Positions 1 to 9,748 of a stretch of 51,040 nt of DNA are shown here, piece after piece. Positions within the stretch are counted from its first letter, which is position 1. Every line of letters begins with the position of its first letter. The stretch covers positions 1 to 51,040 of the forward strand of contig CAYHAL010000006.1 of NCBI GenBank assembly GCA_964354655.1, written 5' to 3'. A program made the position numbers and the translations under genes. This stretch comes from an uncultured Dehalococcoidales bacterium. GTDB lineage: Bacteria > Chloroflexota > Dehalococcoidia > Dehalococcoidales > E44-bin46. The notes below the pieces were generated by a model. The model made no database searches. It saw only the letters and a program-made list of their open reading frames with translations, and was not told the origin of the DNA.

Positions 1-2563
1 TCGGGGTATGGCTGGTGCTCTGGACATTGGTTGGGTCAGGAGGTGGGGTGGTATCCTTAAAGAACTGCCAGCTCCACTCCCCTGATTCACCCTCAACATT
101 GGTGGCATCATCTGAGGCCTTGAAGTAGATAGTGTGGGTACCTTCAGCCAGAGCACCAAACCCGGGGATTGTCCAGTTATCGTTATCCCAGGAGGTACCC
201 GGGGCATCGGTAAACAGGACTGTCCAGCTGCCGGCGAAGGAGTCCATCTGATACCAGCCATCGTCTAAGGCCACGTTATCATCGAAGCCAAAGTTGGAGA
301 AGAAGGGGGCTGTATTGTAGTATTGCCCCTCGGCTTCGGCTATTGACTCCATTGTCGGTGGGGTGGTATCGATAAAGAAGGGGCCGAGGTGGACGGTAGA
401 CTGCCAGTTACCGGCGTTATCTACGCTCCTGATGTGGAAGTAGTGGCTGTTGCCGTCAGCCAGGGCTGAGCTGGTAGTAGTCTGGACCCCTTGCTCAATG
501 TCCTTGGTCGGGTCAGGGATGGTAGAGTTGCTGGTATCCCACAGGATAGAGTAGCCATCAAGACCACTGGTGGTATCAATAGCATCAGTCCAGGTAACAG
601 TAACGGTATTATCACTAGACCAAGTGCTTATGGTATGGCTGGTGCTCTGGACATTGGTTGGATCAGGAGGTGGGGTAGTATCCTTATAGAACTGCCAGCT
701 CCACTCCCCTGATTCACCCTCAACATTGGTGGCATCATCTGAGGCCTTGAAGTAGATAGTATGGCTGCCTTCAGCCAGGGCACCAAACCCGGGGATTGTC
801 CAGCCGTCGCTATCCCAGGAGGTACCTGTGGCATCGGTAAACAGGACTGTCCAGCTGCCGGCGACGGAGTCCATCTGGTACCAGCCATCGTCTAAGGCGA
901 CGTTATCATCGAAGCCGAAGTTGGAGAAGGATGGGGCTGTGTTGTAGTATTGCCCTTCAGGCTCGACTATTGTTTCCATGGTTGGCGGGACGCCTTCCAA
1001 TATCTGCACGGTGTAATTTGACATAGTCAGAGATGAGCTGTCAGGTGTCTTATTCAATATGATAAGAATTACCGTATCATAAGAGGACGTGCTGATCGTA
1101 ACCGAACCCGAAGCCGGGCTCCCACTCATCGGAATATCAGTCACCGTGGGCACACCACTTTGCATGCCGACTACCTTCGCTGCGTAGGTTATACTGGAAG
1201 AGGCACCACTTACCGTAATTCGTACTTGGTCTACCGTAGAATTGATTTGTACGTAATCGGCAGCATAATTTCCTACACCATCAGAAGGTGTGTAATTGAC
1301 GGTGCTTCCAGAGAAGCTTATGTTACCTTCAATGTAGAGCGAGGGGTAGGAAGAAGCTTCTTCATAGCAATAGGGGTTGTTGGTAGGACAGGTAGACATG
1401 ACATAATTAGCCACGGTGAAATTGCTAAATACAGCAGCAAGGCTAGTACCAACGGAGCTTAGCGCATCTTGGATTGCACTGAAAGAGAATAAACCGTAGT
1501 AGCTGTCGTAGTTGACACTATTTTCCCAGATACTTCTCACAGTGCTCTGGCCACCGTGGTGCTCGGAGATATAGCGGGCAAATATCCAGTCTCCATACCA
1601 GTGGAGGCCGGGAGTCTCGCTTGGCATAGCAACGTCGGGGTTATCAAAATAATCAGGCAGGTACTGAAGGTTGTCATTAATAGCGTCGTATACTTCGTCC
1701 TCCATCCAGGTAGCCGTGGCTTCCATCAACCATGTTTCCTCGAAATAATCATAGCCAAACTGGATGGCGTGGTTGAATTCATGGGCGGCTGTCACTTTGA
1801 TACAGTCGAGAGGGGTCAGGGGAAATCCGGAGTAGTCGTTCTCCAATGCTAAAAAGCCGTAGACAGCGTTAACTTCGGTTACGCCCGTTGAATTCTCATT
1901 GTCTCCTATCGGAGTCCCCTGGTCAGCGAAGTTCTCGGGCTGGGTGTAGCCATAGTACAGCATATCTTCAACATAGACATCATAGTCTGAATTCCCATCT
2001 ACAGACACATCGGAGGGAGGCTGAAGCCAGCCCATAGTGCTTAGCTCTGTAGTCCATACGTTTTCCAGCTCGCTACCCATACTCTCTATATAGTCGGGGA
2101 TGCCATTGGTGTTGCTGTCGGTAGTATTGACAGCATCACTGCCAGAAGTTGTATAGTGAATCTGGAAGTGTGTGGTACTATATGTGCTTTCAGATCCACT
2201 CAGGGTAGGCCTAAATAAGGTGCGCCCAAGGCGGCCCACAGGGTAGTTGGACAGCCTACTTCTCGTCCCAGCCTTCAGAATTTGCCAGTTTCTGGTCACC
2301 TCTAGAAGGATGGGAGTAGCGCATTTTGCTGGTGTTGTGCTGTGAAACTCGGTAGGTAGGTTCTCGGGATTAAATATAGATAATACCTTATATTCAATAG
2401 CGGTATCATAGTCGATTTGCCCGCCTCGGTACGCCTCCTCAATCAGCACAACACTAGGGGGCGCTTCACCATCTTGGTCTGATTGGGCAGTGCTTGAGAG
2501 AATGACTACCGGCAAGATTGAGAGTAGCGTAACAATGATTGCTAATCTTACTACAGACTTCAT
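1..2563 (-). CDS. Large secreted zinc metalloprotease (HExxH; MXAN_6640-like catalytic domain) with pro-domain and C-terminal beta-rich repeats; 3' end runs off the window
   Basis: Absent from the ORF track (no stop in window); translated by hand. ATG at 2563 after GAGGGGG; signal peptide MKSVVRLAIIVTLLSILPVVILSSTAQS; pro-region KCATP (C81, 2321-2323); HFQIHYT...DSNTNGIPDYIE; KVTAAHEFNHAIQFGY (HEFNH 1769-1783) followed by WLMEATATWMEDEVYD; in frame to base 2 (854 codons in window). Confidence 0.9.
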   Translation of the reverse strand, partial: MKSVVRLAIIVTLLSILPVVILSSTAQSDQDGEAPPSVVLIEEAYRGGQIDYDTAIEYKVLSIFNPENLPTEFHSTTPAKCATPILLEVTRNWQILKAGTRSRLSNYPVGRLGRTLFRPTLSGSESTYSTTHFQIHYTTSGSDAVNTTDSNTNGIPDYIESMGSELENVWTTELSTMGWLQPPSDVSVDGNSDYDVYVEDMLYYGYTQPENFADQGTPIGDNENSTGVTEVNAVYGFLALENDYSGFPLTPLDCIKVTAAHEFNHAIQFGYDYFEETWLMEATATWMEDEVYDAINDNLQYLPDYFDNPDVAMPSETPGLHWYGDWIFARYISEHHGGQSTVRSIWENSVNYDSYYGLFSFSAIQDALSSVGTSLAAVFSNFTVANYVMSTCPTNNPYCYEEASSYPSLYIEGNISFSGSTVNYTPSDGVGNYAADYVQINSTVDQVRITVSGASSSITYAAKVVGMQSGVPTVTDIPMSGSPASGSVTISTSSYDTVILIILNKTPDSSSLTMSNYTVQILEGVPPTMETIVEPEGQYYNTAPSFSNFGFDDNVALDDGWYQMDSVAGSWTVLFTDATGTSWDSDGWTIPGFGALAEGSHTIYFKASDDATNVEGESGEWSWQFYKDTTPPPDPTNVQSTSHTISTWSSDNTVTVTWTDAIDTTSGLDGYSILWDTSNSTIPDPTKDIEQGVQTTTSSALADGNSHYFHIRSVDNAGNWQSTVHLGPFFIDTTPPTMESIAEAEGQYYNTAPFFSNFGFDDNVALDDGWYQMDSFAGSWTVLFTDAPGTSWDNDNWTIPGFGALAEGTHTIYFKASDDATNVEGESGEWSWQFFKDTTPPPDPTNVQSTSHTP
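5..989. repeat. Intragenic tandem duplication, period 627 bp (209 aa), in the protease C-terminal region
   Basis: 5-362 is nearly identical to 632-989 (atggctggtgctctggacattggttgg at 8 and 635). It encodes PPTME.I.E.EGQYYNTAP.FSNFGFDDNVALDDGWYQMDS...KDTTPPPDPTNVQSTSH twice. The second unit is cut by the window edge. Confidence 0.95.
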
Positions 2564-2618
2564 TATATTCCCCCTCTTACCTGTGATACAGTCGAGATAC
2601 TGCACGGGTCTATGCGTT

Positions 2619-2963
2619 CTAGGTTAAATCTGTCTTCTCTGGTGGCTGAATATACTGGGAAATCTCCTCCTGGGTTGCGGGGCTAAGCTTATCCCAATTC
2701 CTCTGAATCTCTAGAATTATTGGAGTGGCATCCTTCATGGGCACATTGCTTTGATACTCCGGAGGTAGAGCCTCTGGGTTATAGATTGAATAGGTTAAGT
2801 AGAGTGCCCGTGTGTCAAAATCAATAATGTTCTGTTCATAGGCTCTATTAATAAGCTGTACAGTAGTTTGTGTGGTCTCTGCGCGTTGGCTACAGCTCAA
2901 CGCACACCATGCTGCCGGTAGAAGGATAGCCAAAATCACGGCATAGGTTACAATCTTTTTCAT
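2619..2963 (-). CDS. Small secreted/possible lipoprotein homologous to the pro-domain of the downstream metalloprotease
   Basis: 114 aa ORF with AAGGAG RBS; hydrophobic signal ending ALSC (lipobox-like, C24); residues 35-97 align without gaps to protease residues 38-100. Confidence 0.9.
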   Translation of the reverse strand: MKKIVTYAVILAILLPAAWCALSCSQRAETTQTTVQLINRAYEQNIIDFDTRALYLTYSIYNPEALPPEYQSNVPMKDATPIILEIQRNWDKLSPATQEEISQYIQPPEKTDLT

Positions 2964-3018
2964 TAAGTAAGGTTGTCACTCCTTTTGCTGTGCGGCTTGA
3001 CAAATTACTGTTCAAATC

Positions 3019-3068
3019 AAAAAGGGCACCAGTCACCACCGTCTTTCTCAGCGGTTCTAGTGCCCCTT
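3019..3068 (-). terminator. Intrinsic-terminator-like hairpin within the 5' leader of the small gene/protease operon
   Basis: Minus strand GGGCACTAG-AACCGCTGAGAAAGACGGTGGTGA-CTGGTGCCC-TTTTT: 9-bp stem, inner ACCG/CGGT pairing and a U-tract. Confidence 0.6.
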
Positions 3069-3124
3069 CTCATCCCCCAACTGGTAAATGAGCACAATAA
3101 TCTACTTTCGATTAAAACGACTAG

Positions 3125-3184
3125 TTCAAATATGAATCAAATGCTTCTGGCTGTGACTCTAACACTTCATATGTGAATTGTCAA
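3125..3184 (-). promoter_or_regulatory. Sigma70-type promoter with two TTCA-N4-TGAA operator-like palindromes
   Basis: TTGACA (3184-3179)-17 nt-TAGAGT (3161-3156) with TG extension; TTCAAATATGAA at 3125-3136 and TTCATATGTGAA at 3166-3177. Confidence 0.65.
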
Positions 3185-3325
3185 CCCCCTAAGATAAGAG
3201 GTTTTATTTGCATTTGGTTGAAAAAGGAGGTTAATAATGTTTCGTAATTTTAGGCATGGAACAGGGACAAATAGTGACAGATTGTGTCTATATGACCAGT
3301 CGTCAATAAGTGGTAGAATAGGGGC

Positions 3326-3871
3326 ATGCCAAAGGATACAGCCTATTTTTATATTGGTATTGGTATCAACATTATCTTTGGGATTCTTCAGGTGGTGGTG
3401 AACGAAATGCCATTACTTTTGACTATGATTGGTTTCATTATCGGAGCTATTTTCATAATAATAGGAATAATAGGCTGGAAAAAGTCACGAAGGAATAAGA
3501 CTATTTCCAATAATTATGATAAATCACTTGTTTTAACTCCTCATGCATGGGCAATTGGTCTTTCGGGTATGACAGGGTATCCCAAAAAACCTGAAAATGC
3601 AACATGGCTATGCTTTGAAGTATCTGTAAATGCTATTTCCAAGCCTATTGATACACTGGATTTAATAATTGATGGTAAATCTATCCCCGCTAATCAATGG
3701 CATGGCAAAATTGTAACTGCATTCAATGCCTATTTTAAGGTTACTGAATGGCAATGGAAGGGGGAAAACCAAATAGAATTGATAGCTCACATAGAAGGGA
3801 AATCCCATAGTTCGGGTAGAATACCCATAGATTTTAATGTAGAACCTTCGGGAAGAAGCCATCGAATTTAG
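3326..3871 (+). CDS. Hypothetical membrane protein (two N-terminal TM helices)
   Basis: 181 aa ORF; two hydrophobic segments then WKKSRRNK; visibly AT-rich. Confidence 0.75.
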   Translation: MPKDTAYFYIGIGINIIFGILQVVVNEMPLLLTMIGFIIGAIFIIIGIIGWKKSRRNKTISNNYDKSLVLTPHAWAIGLSGMTGYPKKPENATWLCFEVSVNAISKPIDTLDLIIDGKSIPANQWHGKIVTAFNAYFKVTEWQWKGENQIELIAHIEGKSHSSGRIPIDFNVEPSGRSHRI

Positions 3872-4039
3872 CAGGGGCATCTTGGAAATTGTCCATAATA
3901 GTGCCGTTTGTCCCGAATACGAATTGTAAAGTAAAAACAACCAAATGCAAACAGAACCAGATAAGAGGGCTATTCAACGCTGTTGACAGCGACAGCGGGG
4001 ATGTCATATCCTATTCGGCAACATGTCTGATGGAAGGAA

Positions 4040-4555
4040 ATGGTAGCAATGGCTAACAGAGTACGCAGGTTGATAGATGTAGAACACGGGGATGCTGTCC
4101 TAAGGGCCTTTATACTCTTTGTGCAAACCGCGCATGCAGTATTGAAGTATGGGGACGCTTATTTCTTTAGAAAAGCGCGTCTCTCGGTGATAAAGTTCAT
4201 CGTGTTGCAAGCGTTAGCCGTCAATGGCACGATGACACTCTCTGAAATAGCTGAGTGGACACACAAAGAGCGGCACAATATCACGACGCTAGTTGAGCGG
4301 CTCAAGAGAGATGGACTTGTCACTGCTGAGCATGATAGCAGAGACAGGAGATTTGTCCACGTGAGGCTGACGGATAAGGGATGGGAGGTTGTCAGCCAAT
4401 CTACACCGGTGGCTAAAGATATTGTGAAACAAGTGATGCTGTCAATTAATGAAGGTGATGCTGTCCTCCTCGAAAAGCCACTAAGAGTCTTGAGGCAAAA
4501 TGCACACCATGGCTTAAAACATTTCACCAAACGTTCTCAACATCATCCTGCGTAG
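4040..4555 (+). CDS. MarR family transcriptional regulator
   Basis: TMTLSEIAEW...ITTLVERLKRDGLV...DSRDRRFVHVRLTDKG winged-helix signature. Confidence 0.92.
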   Translation: MVAMANRVRRLIDVEHGDAVLRAFILFVQTAHAVLKYGDAYFFRKARLSVIKFIVLQALAVNGTMTLSEIAEWTHKERHNITTLVERLKRDGLVTAEHDSRDRRFVHVRLTDKGWEVVSQSTPVAKDIVKQVMLSINEGDAVLLEKPLRVLRQNAHHGLKHFTKRSQHHPA

Positions 4556-4674
4556 GGCAGTGATGTTGTCATCTACGGATTGAACAATTTCCCATGTGTG
4601 ATTAGTTTAGGTATCAAAACGTCATCTAGTGGAGACCCAACAAATTGAGTTATTGTTAATGGAATCGGGATATT

Positions 4675-5565
4675 CTATTCCTTTACCCCAATAGGCTGCC
4701 ATTGCCACGCCTCTCCCTTTCGCATGACGTGGCCCAGACCGGGGAAGGGGAAGTGAAACGCAAGCACCAGGGCATTCTCAGTTGCCGCTCTCTTTAGAAG
4801 CCTGCGTCTGGTGGCTACGACCTGCTGGGGAGAAAAATCGGTGCCTGCACACCATTCTGGTTGCTCCAGATGGATGGGGTGGAGTACCACATCAGAGACG
4901 CACAGCAATTGCTTACCTCTTGAGGAAATAGCCAGCGCCATTTGCCCCGGTGTATGGCCAGGCGCTGCGACAGCCTGAATACCGGGTACGATTTCGGTTT
5001 CATGGTCAACAAGTTCCAACTGGCCTTGAATCGGGGGGAGGTTCTTGCGTGCGAATCTCAGCTGCCGCTCCCTGACATGTTCATCAAGCTTTGTTTCCGC
5101 CTGTCCCGAGGTCCAGAACTCCCACTCGTCTTGCCACATTACATACGTGGCGTTGGGGAAAGCTGGCCTCCCCTTGTCGTCAGTGTTCCCACCGATGTGG
5201 TCTGGATGTCCATGGGTGATGATGACCGTGTCAATGTGCTCAGGCGCAATCCCTACAGCCTTCAGGTTCTGAACAAGCTTTCCTGTGCTTGGGGCAAGGC
5301 CATCGGCACCCGTATCCACCAGCACCTGATGCTTGCCTGTGTTAACTGCCAGGCAAATGTATGGGCTTGTCCACTCTAGCCACTGTTCTGGCTGTAGGTT
5401 GTGTTCGCGAAGCACTGGCTCAAGTCGTTCTTTTGGCGCATTAGCGAAAAGGAATATGGCCGGCGGTGGGAAGGTCGGAGGTGCGTAGGTGTGAGTGCCG
5501 TCACTAACAGCTACGCAGTGGAAATCCCCTAGCTCAAAGTGATAAATGTCAGCGTTCATAGCCAT
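4675..5565 (-). CDS. Metallo-beta-lactamase fold hydrolase (YtnP/methyl-parathion-hydrolase/lactonase-like)
   Basis: VLVDTG, THGHPDHIGG (HxHxDH), APGHTPG, SDVVLH, AFHFPFPG. Confidence 0.92.
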   Translation of the reverse strand: MAMNADIYHFELGDFHCVAVSDGTHTYAPPTFPPPAIFLFANAPKERLEPVLREHNLQPEQWLEWTSPYICLAVNTGKHQVLVDTGADGLAPSTGKLVQNLKAVGIAPEHIDTVIITHGHPDHIGGNTDDKGRPAFPNATYVMWQDEWEFWTSGQAETKLDEHVRERQLRFARKNLPPIQGQLELVDHETEIVPGIQAVAAPGHTPGQMALAISSRGKQLLCVSDVVLHPIHLEQPEWCAGTDFSPQQVVATRRRLLKRAATENALVLAFHFPFPGLGHVMRKGEAWQWQPIGVKE

Positions 5566-6546: not shown

Positions 6547-6858
6547 CTAGTGGTTCTTGGATAAGAGAGCCTGCATCAGGCTCTTGAATAGTTTTCCGTG
6601 GTTAGGTACCCTTAAGTGAAGCAGTTCGTGAACTATCGCTTCAGCTCGGAATCTCGCCGGCTGTCGGAGTATCTCGATATTGAAAGTCAGTCTTCCGTTG
6701 CTGGAACAGCTGGCCCATTTGCTCTTCATATGACGAAGACGAGTTTCCTTAGGCTCAACGCCAATACGCCGGGCCCAGCTCATTACCTCAGCTTTGAAAA
6801 CTTGAGGCAAGACTGTTTCTTCCAAAGTCGGCGGTAAATTAGGCTGAGTTACTATCAT
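6547..6858 (-). CDS. YgjP/DUF45-like (M48-type HExxH) protein associated with type I R-M
   Basis: MKSKWASCS, IVHELLHLRVPNHGKLF; starts 1 bp after the hsdR stop. Confidence 0.88.
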   Translation of the reverse strand: MIVTQPNLPPTLEETVLPQVFKAEVMSWARRIGVEPKETRLRHMKSKWASCSSNGRLTFNIEILRQPARFRAEAIVHELLHLRVPNHGKLFKSLMQALLSKNH

Positions 6859-6859
6859 A

Positions 6860-9748
6860 TTATCTTCTCCGGATTACCGACATGATTTTTTCAACTACCT
6901 GTGGAGTATCCTTAGCATTCATCTTGTCAAGGAGCTGATACAGCTTGAAGCGTATTTGACGATTTTGCTTGCCACTGGTCTGCCAGTGGGGATATTCCCC
7001 GAAGATTTTTGCCATCTCGGTTGCCGTCTTTTCAGCATCAATCGATGGTGCACCCTGCTGCTTGAGTAGCCACATGATGGCGAATGGCTCCCCTGATATT
7101 CCACGCTCCGCTTGCTCCCGCTCTGCTTCGTTAATTTCCCGAATCAGAGATTCAAGCTGCTTTAGCGCTTCCTGAGTAGAAATCTGACGTTGCTTAAAGG
7201 CTTCAACGATGGCTTCTGCCCGCTCACCGATAGAGAAAAGATAGGGCGCAGCCATAGCCTCATCTTGCACCTTACGACCAATGCTCTTAAGCAGGTTAAA
7301 AACCTTAACCGTGTCAGACTGGCTGCTCTGAGCAATCTGTTCTAGAGTACGGGGTGTAATCTCATAGACAGAGACGGCCTCACGGATTACCCCGACCTGG
7401 GTATATTCCTGAACCAACTGGGCGGTCTTGCGGGCAAGCTCTCTACTTGCCAGTCCTTTTCCTTCATAGGCAGAGCGCAATAGTGCATAGAGGTCACCCA
7501 GGCGCTGATAATCGTCCATGAATTCACGCAAGAAGGCGTCCGGGGAAAGAATTTCGTACAGGTCTTCCAGCTCTGCAAAGAAACTGTAAAACGACTGCCG
7601 TTTTTCCTCGTCACGAAACGCCTCTAGAGCTGCTTCAGCTGCTTTGTCGGCTACTTTGCCTGCCACAAGAGGTAGGTACTGCGCTCTTCCGGTTGCTATG
7701 TGCTCCCTAAAGCGCGCTTTCAGAATATCTAAACCCTCAATGACACTCTGGACATCTTTTGAGTCAAAGGCCAGCGCTTTTTCCAGATTCTCAAAAATAC
7801 CCACAAAGTCGAGCACAAAGCCACCTGGCTTATGCTTGCCGTTTTCGTCTTCATAGGGGCGGTTGACGCGGGCAATAGCCTGAAGGAGCACATGGTCACG
7901 CATTGGCTTATCCAGATATACGCAGTAGAGCACAGGCGCATCGTAGCCGGTAAGCAGTTTCTCTGTAACAATGAATATTTTGGGTAGTTCGTCTGGCTTG
8001 ATAAATGCTTTGCGGAAGCGCTTTTCTTCCTCTTCAGATAGGTGGTAGCGAGCAAGCTCAGGTGGGTCATTATGCCCAGGGCTGATGATGACTCTCGAAT
8101 ACTCGCTAGACAAGTAGGTATCAAGTGCTTCTTTGAGCAGGCAACAAGCCTCGCGGTCAACACCCACCAGAAACGCCTTGTAACCCATCGGCTCCACTGT
8201 TTCGGTGAAGTGCTTGGCGACATACTGGGCAACTCGCTGGACGCGGTCGCGGTTCTTGAGCATATTCTTTAAGGTAACAGCCTTATCCAGCACCCGGTTG
8301 AGGTCTTCAATATCACTGATGCCTTCGGCATCAGCGAGGTCAAGGAATTCCTGCTCCAGAATCTGACGGTCAACTCTGAGCTCATTCGGTGCCAGTGAAT
8401 AATAAAGAGGCACCGTGGTGCCGTCTTCTATAGATTCGGCAATGGAATACTTATCAAGATAGCCCTCAGGGTCGTCAATACCAAAGACCTTGAAAGTCCC
8501 TTTGCCGTAGGTGGTTTTATCAATGGGAGTGCCGGTAAAGCCTAAGTAAGTGGCATTGGGGAGAGCTCCCATTAGATAGTTCCCCAAGTCGCCTCCGGTG
8601 GTTCGGTGGGCTTCGTCTACCAATACGAATATATTCCTTCGTTCGTTAATCCTAGCAGGAATTTCATCGAACTTGTGAATCATGGAGACGATGACACCGC
8701 GAGTATCGTTCTTTAGCAATTGCTTCAGCTCCGCTTTGCTTTCGGCTACTGCCACATTGCCCAGACCACAAGCAGCCAGATTACCAAAAAGTTGCGTTTC
8801 CAGTTCATTACGGTCTACCAGCATAAGCACGGTCGGGTTTTGGAAGACGGGCTCCTCAATGAGACGCTTAGCGATAGTAATCATGGTATAGGTCTTGCCC
8901 GAGCCTTGCGTGTGCCAGATAAGCCCGCGCCGTCTATTGGGGTCATGAGCCCGTACCAATGCTCGTTCTACCGCACGCATCTGGTGTGGGCGTAGGATAA
9001 CCTTTTGCAGTTCATCATCTTTGCGGGTAAACAGGATAAAGTCCTTCAGCACCCTGAGCACCCGCTCCGGGGCAACGAAAGTTTTAACCAGAGTCTCAAA
9101 ATCCTTGCCCACGCTCTCATCTTTCCAGTCGAACAGGTTCTTCTGGGAAAGATTCCAAGTAGCGCCGTAGTGATATCGGACGAGATGCGTTAGCCCAAAC
9201 ACTTGCATCAGAGCCAGGAGTTCGGGTCCCTCACGGTGGTAGCGACGCATCTGGTCAAGCGCTTCAGCAATACCCTCCGGCTTGGTCGCGGCTTTAGTTT
9301 CTATCAAAATGATGGGAATGCCGTTAACTAGAAAGACCACATCGGGGCGGATGGTATAAACGCCGTTAGTAAAGGTAAATTCGTTCGTAACGTGAAAGAC
9401 GTTACGGTGAGCGTTCTCCAAATCCAGAAGGCGCACATTGCGCTCCCGCCGCTCAGCCTCAACAAACACCGTCTTGAGGCCTCTAAGAAACTCCCATGCC
9501 TGAAGGTTACCTTCAATGGTAGGTGGAACACGGATTAACTGCTTTGCCACCTCTTCCGCCTTAAGGTAGTCTACCCTGTCTGGGTTCAGTGCCTGCACCT
9601 TTTCAACAAAAATATTCCAGACGATGGGGCTCGTCTCACCCCGGCGCAGACGCAGGGTTTCGTCAGGTGGCAGGTAAGTCCAACCTGCCTCTACAGCGTA
9701 ACGGATAAGCGAGTTCTGGACAGTTCCGCGCTCACTGCCAAGTTTCAT
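6860..9748 (-). CDS. hsdR: Type I restriction endonuclease subunit R
   Basis: RPDVVFLVNGIPIILIETK nuclease motif; WHTQGSGKT Walker A; VDEAHR; FTGTP; LLTGYDAP; QAIARVNRP. Confidence 0.97.
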   Translation of the reverse strand: MKLGSERGTVQNSLIRYAVEAGWTYLPPDETLRLRRGETSPIVWNIFVEKVQALNPDRVDYLKAEEVAKQLIRVPPTIEGNLQAWEFLRGLKTVFVEAERRERNVRLLDLENAHRNVFHVTNEFTFTNGVYTIRPDVVFLVNGIPIILIETKAATKPEGIAEALDQMRRYHREGPELLALMQVFGLTHLVRYHYGATWNLSQKNLFDWKDESVGKDFETLVKTFVAPERVLRVLKDFILFTRKDDELQKVILRPHQMRAVERALVRAHDPNRRRGLIWHTQGSGKTYTMITIAKRLIEEPVFQNPTVLMLVDRNELETQLFGNLAACGLGNVAVAESKAELKQLLKNDTRGVIVSMIHKFDEIPARINERRNIFVLVDEAHRTTGGDLGNYLMGALPNATYLGFTGTPIDKTTYGKGTFKVFGIDDPEGYLDKYSIAESIEDGTTVPLYYSLAPNELRVDRQILEQEFLDLADAEGISDIEDLNRVLDKAVTLKNMLKNRDRVQRVAQYVAKHFTETVEPMGYKAFLVGVDREACCLLKEALDTYLSSEYSRVIISPGHNDPPELARYHLSEEEEKRFRKAFIKPDELPKIFIVTEKLLTGYDAPVLYCVYLDKPMRDHVLLQAIARVNRPYEDENGKHKPGGFVLDFVGIFENLEKALAFDSKDVQSVIEGLDILKARFREHIATGRAQYLPLVAGKVADKAAEAALEAFRDEEKRQSFYSFFAELEDLYEILSPDAFLREFMDDYQRLGDLYALLRSAYEGKGLASRELARKTAQLVQEYTQVGVIREAVSVYEITPRTLEQIAQSSQSDTVKVFNLLKSIGRKVQDEAMAAPYLFSIGERAEAIVEAFKQRQISTQEALKQLESLIREINEAEREQAERGISGEPFAIMWLLKQQGAPSIDAEKTATEMAKIFGEYPHWQTSGKQNRQIRFKLYQLLDKMNAKDTPQVVEKIMSVIRRR

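Follow-up and report, generated by a model that had tools for sequence, protein, structure and literature searches.

Stand-alone inhibitors of the propeptide-like kind make up types I9 and I29 of the MEROPS classification. Free proteins also exist that contain the PepSY domain of M4 (thermolysin-family) propeptides, and a regulatory or inhibitory role has been proposed for them; zymogens with a cysteine or an aspartate switch are known among matrix metalloproteases (MMPs), astacins, fragilysin and others. The excerpted account PMC6993865 describes a propeptide-like protein that inhibits the subtilase SUB1. In Tannerella forsythia, as set out in the excerpted account PMC9890683, the potempin genes lie immediately upstream of, and are co-transcribed with, the genes of the KLIKK peptidases that the potempins inhibit, and these lipoproteins protect the cell's own membrane; potempin precursors are 118-152 residues long and potempins 98-132, and the target peptidases themselves have a prodomain (PMC9890683). 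The locus analyzed here lies at the start of the window, by which is meant throughout a 51,040-nucleotide (nt) stretch of DNA from an uncultured Dehalococcoidales bacterium (contig CAYHAL010000006.1 of assembly GCA_964354655.1). It consists of the gene of a metalloprotease (P0002) and, directly upstream of it, a small gene (P0001) whose product is a homologue of the N-terminal domain of that protease, and which is probably a membrane-anchored, pro-domain-like cognate regulator of it, and probably an inhibitor.

2619 to 2963, minus strand: small gene P0001, 114 amino acids (aa) and a TAG stop codon; signal peptide with lipobox, then a four-helix domain
2892 to 2963, minus strand: P0001 residues 1-24, signal peptide with the lipobox-like A-L-S-C24 (from conservation of C24 and a lipobox regular expression)
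2643 to 2861, minus strand: conserved core of P0001, residues 35-107, including the P.K[D/S]ATPIILEIQRNW block
2730 to 2732, minus strand: GAT codon of P0001 D78, the proposed 'aspartate switch'
2564 to 2618, minus strand: 55-nt spacer between P0001 and the protease, in which a purine-rich ribosome-binding stretch precedes the protease ATG
2 to 2563, minus strand: metalloprotease gene P0002, 854 aa visible, cut off by the contig start
2234 to 2452, minus strand: N-terminal (putative pro-) domain of P0002, residues 38-110, homologous to P0001
2321 to 2323, minus strand: TGC codon of P0002 C81, the proposed 'cysteine switch'

Both genes are on the minus strand, with the protease downstream, and each N-terminus is basic and then hydrophobic in the manner of a signal sequence. 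The most likely start of P0002 is the ATG at 2563, behind a GGGGG-rich ribosome-binding stretch; its frame leaves the contig at base 2. A first-pass annotation of this DNA had described the two genes as co-oriented, 55 nt apart and both provided with export signals, and the open reading frames (ORFs) and a BLASTP comparison bear this out: P0001 and the N-terminus of P0002 share 42 of 107 positions with 3 gaps (E 2e-20), well above what chance would give, so that P0001 is a free protein homologous to the N-terminal, putatively pro-, region of its neighbor. The same annotation had counted 32 identities in 63 ungapped positions (P0001 residues 35-97 against P0002 residues 38-100), which is exact, and had set D78 of P0001 opposite C81 of P0002 in the block P.K[C/D]ATPI.LE..RNW, a correspondence that the alignment reproduces. 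This block, that is, the proposed switch segment together with the helix that follows it, is the most conserved part of both proteins.

P0001 is one of a group of small proteins. A cluster search restricted to proteins of 62-200 aa yields 30 further clusters with 45-86% identity to it, and K77, T80, I83-R88 and W90 are invariant in the alignment of the 31. In a tree of the core columns these small proteins form a clade of their own, with a Shimodaira-Hasegawa-like approximate likelihood ratio test (SH-aLRT) value of 95, or 96 when three further stand-alone proteins are included, and the N-domains of the neighboring proteases form a distinct clade (SH-aLRT 98); the tree rests on 71 columns, which are few, and its deep nodes are weak. 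Because the small proteins and the N-domains fall into separate clades, P0001 is an old paralogue of the protease N-domain and not a recent copy. The annotation's description of the small gene as a stand-alone copy of the protease's own pro-domain therefore holds as to homology with the N-domain and fails as to recent copying.

The group is also maintained by selection. Pairwise Nei-Gojobori estimates of the ratio of nonsynonymous to synonymous substitution rates (dN/dS) have a median of 0.157 for the small-protein domain (range 0.044-0.372; 50 usable of 55 pairs), close in size to the medians for the protease N-domain (0.186; 44 usable of 45 pairs) and the protease catalytic domain (0.147; 21 of 21 pairs). 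The signal peptide of the small protein evolves fast (median 0.69; 43 usable of 55 pairs). By these estimates P0001 is a real gene under purifying selection, the outcome that the first-pass annotation had named as a check on its proposal, and a decaying duplicate is therefore excluded.

A second such check was recurrence of the gene pair. The small gene is carried by one GTDB genome contig (L006, also from an uncultured Dehalococcoidales bacterium) and by 13 metagenome contigs. In 9 of the 10 informative loci (operationally, those with enough downstream DNA; L012, L017, L018 and L019 end too soon) it lies directly upstream of a protease that bears the N-domain, with the next ORF within ~60 nt (L006, L007, L008, L009, L011, L013, L014, L015 and L016). 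The potempin-like arrangement, a small lipobox gene immediately upstream of and co-oriented with a peptidase gene, is thus the usual one. The genome of the window and that of L006 each have exactly one small gene and one protease. Neither the small gene nor the N-domain was found in four congeneric genomes (G001-G004, 70-92% complete), from which the pair would seem to be accessory DNA of patchy distribution. The two genes are probably co-transcribed: a scan of 2400 to 3400 found no terminator-like site, hence none between them, and a scan of the 55-nt spacer found no promoter-like site. A consensus scan did find one farther upstream, with 10 of 12 consensus matches (as a pattern match only):

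3156 to 3184, minus strand: promoter-like site, TTGACA-17 nt-TAGAGT with TG, ~190 nt upstream of the small gene

P0001 is probably exported and lipid-anchored, to judge from its N-terminal sequence. C24 of the lipobox is conserved at 90% or more in the alignment of the 31 small proteins, 26 of which match the lipobox regular expression, and the same genome encodes Lgt and LspA. An AlphaFold2 (AF2) model of P0001 alone has a predicted local distance difference test (pLDDT) score above 90 over residues 31-110, with helices at 34-43, 49-61, 80-88 and 95-101. Pfam and NCBIfam hold no family for the protein, and the ESM Atlas returned no usable match to it. A shared-word search of P0001 against longer proteins gave zero matches, which reflects a limit of the word index, since a profile search later found fused forms.

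The partner of P0001 is a member of a recognized, if little described, family of proteases, the principal features of which are located in P0002 as follows.

1244 to 2161, minus strand: catalytic domain, MXAN_6640 family, residues 135-440
1769 to 1783, minus strand: HEFNH zinc-binding and catalytic motif, residues 261-265 (H261, E262, H265), invariant in 82 of 82 homologues
1721 to 1723, minus strand: E281, probable third zinc ligand (gluzincin), likewise invariant in 82 of 82
1595 to 1597, minus strand: Y323, probable catalytic tyrosine, present in 81 of 82
2 to 990, minus strand: repeated Ig-like/fn3-like C-terminal modules, within which the contig stops

P0002 scores 259.5 bits on the NCBIfam model NF045524 (MXAN_6640_HExxH; cut-off 140) over residues 135-440, which places it in that family (263.7 bits in the genome-wide search); its first 134 residues fall outside the model. 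An HExxH motif with a downstream Glu (H261, E262, H265, E281) in every homologue is a pattern that we take to be that of a gluzincin and not of a metzincin (MMPs, astacins, pappalysins), E281 presumably serving as the third ligand. The catalytic role of Y323 is probable by analogy with M1 and M30 enzymes; the title of PDB entry 7bb9 (lugdulysin) names a Y315F mutant. An AF2 model of residues 1-461, made with the 82-homologue alignment, has a pLDDT of 93 and a predicted template modelling score (pTM) of 0.90. Its nearest fold is that of the M30 peptidase lugdulysin (7bb8_A: Z 22.2, 282 residues aligned, root-mean-square deviation 3.2; 7bb9: Z 20.9, 299 aligned), M1 aminopeptidases follow at Z ~13, and Foldseek also relates the model to lugdulysin (E 1.6e-05). 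At the level of sequence there is no such relation: Peptidase_M30 has zero Pfam matches to P0002 at E <= 1, and lugdulysin is absent from the PDB sequence matches of P0002 and from those of the 82-sequence profile at E <= 10, which give just marginal matches to the HExxH region or to the C-terminal tail. The comparison with pappalysins and MMPs drawn in the first-pass annotation consequently does not carry over to this enzyme, a gluzincin with an M30/M1-like predicted fold.

The C-terminal region of P0002 contains a unit of ~209 aa twice (TPPTME...QSTSHT) with an fn3-like stretch between the copies, and gives weak Big_13 and fn3 matches in Pfam and an OmpL47-type match in NCBIfam. As the contig stops within the second copy, it was probably this repeat that interrupted the assembly, and the actual C-terminus, which may have an anchor, lies outside the available sequence. 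A Por/type IX secretion system (T9SS) tail domain was not detected in the visible part of P0002 with Pfam or NCBIfam.

The N-domain that P0001 resembles has a wider distribution than the pair. Searched against 1.84 billion cluster representatives, a profile of fused and short forms retrieves 663 at E <= 0.001. Among the proteins examined, 119 long ones have the domain 100-230 residues before HExxH, and 67 are stand-alone candidates (less than 260 aa, without HExxH, the domain extending close to the C-terminus). The lipobox expression matches 36 of these 67, as against 8 of 105 proteases with a complete N-terminus. Free-standing forms like P0001 are found in other lineages as well. Complete small lipoproteins with the domain that are only distantly related to P0001 include P0154, P0155, P0156, P0160, P0162, P0171, P0181, P0182 and P0212. 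No Pfam model covers the N-domain in P0001, P0002 or six other proteins. At least 8 members of the protease family among the matches listed lack it (they have gaps or low-complexity sequence in its place), and the N-domain is therefore an accessory module outside the catalytic core. Occasionally the domain lies far from HExxH (P0180, P0242, P0287).

Two further groups of domain-bearing proteins may be recorded here. P0163, P0170, P0189 and P0208 are exported and contain two or three tandem variants of the domain with no protease domain; in these variants GW(R)GT replaces K[C/D]AT and there are additional conserved cysteines. P0032, P0156, P0160, P0162 and the protein of L019 form another set of stand-alone lipoproteins, all of which share an acidic tail (LDDVTPDRL..ER) that is conserved among them; the switch position in this group is Cys, but Ser or Gly in P0032 and L019.

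How P0001 might act can be put as follows. The protein, exported and probably lipid-anchored, comprises only the four-helix domain that fronts most MXAN_6640-family catalytic domains, and would bind the catalytic domain of its neighbor in the manner of the cis N-domain. The P-x-K-[C/D/S]-[A/G]-T segment would add to the catalytic moiety as a short β-strand and the next conserved helix would pack against that moiety, the processed enzyme being thereby kept latent or tethered at the membrane; P0001 would in this sense be an inhibitor or guardian that derives from the pro-domain and is cognate to the enzyme. In members with Cys, Asp or Glu at the C81/D78 position, that residue may reach the zinc, but it is not an obligatory ligand. 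That the P0001-type lipoprotein binds the catalytic domain like the cis N-domain and keeps the processed enzyme latent or membrane-tethered is the reading that we tentatively prefer, giving it a little less than an even chance. A more general proposal may be credible and is nevertheless rather unlikely: that MXAN_6640/M30-like gluzincins have a family of helical pro-domains whose K-[C/D/E]-[A/G]-T strand caps the zinc, and that several lineages have released this pro-domain as a membrane lipoprotein, a switch-type inhibitor of the adjacent protease.

The modelled N-domain of P0002 has pLDDT values of 90-98, with helices at 37-46, 52-64, 83-91 and 98-104 and a strand at 79-81, and the linker that follows (residues 105-124) has lower values, 88 and 77 for its two blocks, which is only suggestive of removal of the N-domain. 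Several observations weigh against inhibition in the manner of a cis pro-domain. The P0001 model has no significant match to a solved pro-domain or inhibitor (the best VIA Z is 4.8 among 48,161 chains), and Foldseek gives no match to it at E <= 0.001. The small proteins are not sister to the N-domains of their neighbors in the tree, so that the tree does not show co-evolution of the pair. The coupling can be broken, as in L010, where the small gene is shortened at its C-terminus and the ORF after it is an unrelated one. The pair is absent from the 40 nearest genomes searched, the four congeneric ones among them, and the N-domain occurs in just 1 of 400 other sampled genomes of the phylum (in a 979-aa frame). 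Lastly, the switch column is among the more variable of its motif, with an entropy of 2.41 bits as against 0.70 for the Thr two residues on.

That last point bears most directly on the explanation that the first-pass annotation itself favored, namely that C81 is the cysteine-switch ligand of the zymogen and D78 an oxidation-insensitive aspartate-switch ligand for inhibition in trans. Its idea of a trans-acting partner survives in part, because lipobox, selection and synteny fit an inhibitor or a chaperone; its zinc-switch rule does not, and the switch is unlikely to be the mechanism. A conserved split between Cys and Asp is not seen. Of the 31 small proteins, 19 have D and 12 have S at position 78; position 81 in the 82 proteases is C in 44, S in 19, D in 9, G in 4, L in 2 and E in 2; and the ten adjacent pairs (small protein/protease) are D/C in 6 cases, S/C in 2, S/S in 1 and D/S in 1, which makes no C-versus-D rule. 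In P0033, the closest orthologue of the protease P0002 (82% identical), the residue is Ser. Outside the P0001 clade, stand-alone candidates have Cys about as frequently as Asp (14 and 13). On the other hand, of those same 36 candidates 30 have a residue that could serve as a ligand (C, D or E), and so do 154 of 229 distinct domain rows, in which the column is C in 90, D in 54, S in 48 and E in 10. Moreover, across the first 461 residues of the 82 proteases no column other than C81 reaches 25% Cys, and no covarying Cys partner for a disulfide exists in that alignment; being the only frequent Cys column, C81 represents an unpaired cysteine, as expected for a metal ligand and not for a disulfide. 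The motif P-x-K-C-G-T-P resembles the PRCGxPD switch of MMPs. Residues 79-81 also form the only β-strand of the N-domain in the full-length P0002 model, and the equivalent residues 76-78 have no strand in the isolated P0001 model, so that, to judge from strand assignment alone (which leaves either sheet edge), the pairing partner must be in the catalytic part of the predicted structure. The variation among C, S, D, G and E nevertheless means that, as far as the alignments go, the switch residue cannot be an obligatory zinc ligand: the column lacks the conserved zinc-ligating residue of a switch pro-segment, and a zinc contact by the C81/D78 residue is a possibility. (A separate suggestion, that sequences without the ligand residue must have a basic residue ahead of the switch position, was dropped for lack of significance; Fisher p = 0.29.)

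The homology, synteny and selection that suggest an inhibitor serve equally well for a helper in folding or maturation, a chaperone-like domain provided in trans or a displacer of the cis N-domain that activates the enzyme. Pro-domains of several secreted proteases are foldase and inhibitor at once (excerpted account PMC10580911). Such a role is quite unlikely for P0001: the protease already has its own N-domain, next to which a second foldase seems redundant, and the existence of family members that lack the domain implies that the catalytic domain probably folds unaided. It is also possible, and decidedly improbable, that the N-domain is a permanent and non-inhibitory module for docking, oligomerisation or substrate recognition, the lipoprotein being a membrane docking partner or having a role unrelated to the active site. 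AF2 packs the N-domain onto the catalytic domain very confidently, as it would a fixed domain, and the tandem-repeat variants with no protease, the occasional placement far from HExxH and the lack of any pro-domain match to the small fold all agree with permanence. However, the 119 long proteins have the domain right after the signal peptide and at its usual distance from HExxH, which is the classic position of a pro-domain; the domain has an unpaired Cys; and some members of the family do without it. Finally, P0001 adjoins its own homologue in a pair that is lacking in the nearest genomes, as might a remnant without function from a partial tandem duplication, or an artefact of assembly or annotation. 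This explanation is extremely improbable, given a dN/dS of 0.157 at dS values that reach above 1, the fact that loci as little as 62% identical still have the stop codon, the signal peptide and the lipobox, the age and separateness of the small-protein clade (SH-aLRT 95-96), and an identical architecture on independent metagenome contigs.

The surroundings of the gene pair vary. A MarR-family gene (4040 to 4555, plus strand) lies upstream of the small gene and is divergent from it, has homologues at the corresponding place in L007 (106 to 685) and L009 (4274 to 4864), and may regulate the pair. In the window, an additional membrane-like ORF of 181 aa with no family match (3326 to 3871) lies between the MarR gene and the small gene, and farther along (6547 to 9748, minus strand) there are an ORF of 962 aa, by eye resembling a type I restriction R subunit with helicase motifs, and then a 103-aa ORF with HELLH. 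In L006 (3423 to 6845) the protease is found as two overlapping frames, 3423 to 4136 and 3994 to 5487, because of either a frameshift or an assembly error; at its end a hydrophobic tail precedes basic residues, much as in a C-terminal sorting signal. Next come a gene for a CPBP/myxosortase-like intramembrane protease, whose best score of 51.6 bits falls short of the family cut-offs, and an ORF for a multi-pass membrane protein; no homologue of this CPBP gene was found in the genome of the window with that query. In L010 (492 to 2283) the short small gene ends ...ATQEETNE, an ending shared by P0008, P0009 and P0011, and the ORF downstream encodes an exported protein of 478 or more aa with a Cys-rich N-terminal part, no NCBIfam match, and a GSCGSCYAF stretch that looks papain-like.

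The evidence on P0001 and P0002 is purely computational. It amounts to a solid lead with good comparative support for function, in which the Cys-to-Asp swap is not a rule, and the surprise that it holds is moderate and not high, since the component ideas are established. If P0001 does inhibit or tether its neighbor, it would be the first way into how secreted zinc proteases of this large and uncharacterised family are regulated, would establish a pro-domain or inhibitor family that is new and outside Pfam, and would mean that a pro-domain can turn into a free inhibitor of bacterial metalloproteases too, as it can of serine and cysteine proteases. At the switch column, the natural variation of C, D and E versus S and G is a ready series for the dependence of latency on a zinc ligand.

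It remains to set this locus beside the systems described at the outset. With the potempins it shares a lipoprotein gene (here of 114 aa, 55 nt away) directly 5' of the gene of a secreted peptidase. The potempins are not described as homologues of peptidase prodomains in the excerpted account (PMC9890683), whereas P0001 is clearly a paralogue of an N-domain; and potempins inhibit, whereas P0001 would do so only by extension from its sequence and setting. The host differs too, being a Dehalococcoidales-like organism. The PDB matches listed for the P0001 model contain no potempin entry (that list being no direct comparison with potempins). With the propeptide-like inhibitors the proposed P0001 shares the principle of a free homologue of the pro-region that acts in trans on the mature enzyme. 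Whereas the known examples have subtilases and papain-like enzymes as their targets, P0002 is a zinc gluzincin, and its free N-domain homologue has a lipobox and is encoded in the same putative operon. With the switch zymogens P0002 shares an N-terminal segment in which a short extended stretch with a single Cys (or Asp) precedes a helix, but the ligand column of its family is variable (C/S/D/G/E) and its catalytic domain is of the gluzincin and not the metzincin kind. PepSY is likewise a module of a metalloprotease pro-region that is found as separate exported or membrane proteins; it belongs to a different protease family, has no Pfam match on P0001 or P0002 at E <= 1, and differs from the P0001-type fold, which is predicted to be all-helical with one short strand. 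M30 lugdulysin (7bb8, 7bb9) is the best structural match of the modelled N-domain and catalytic domain together, in the absence of a sequence match; the 7bb9 match begins at residue 31 of the P0002 model, and the P0001 model alone does not retrieve 7bb9.

Operon-encoded lipoprotein inhibitors, propeptide-like inhibitors and Cys or Asp switches are thus already established, each in its own setting. In the published literature, supplementary files aside, no account was found of the N-domain of the MXAN_6640 family or of its pairing with a small gene, and the combination of a metalloprotease with a free lipoprotein paralogue of its N-domain, encoded directly upstream, appears to be undescribed. 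Were the zinc-capping proposal true, P0001 would be, as far as the searches so far extend, the first prokaryotic trans inhibitor of a metalloprotease derived from a pro-domain, joining the operon logic of the potempins to an origin like that of the I9 and I29 inhibitors.

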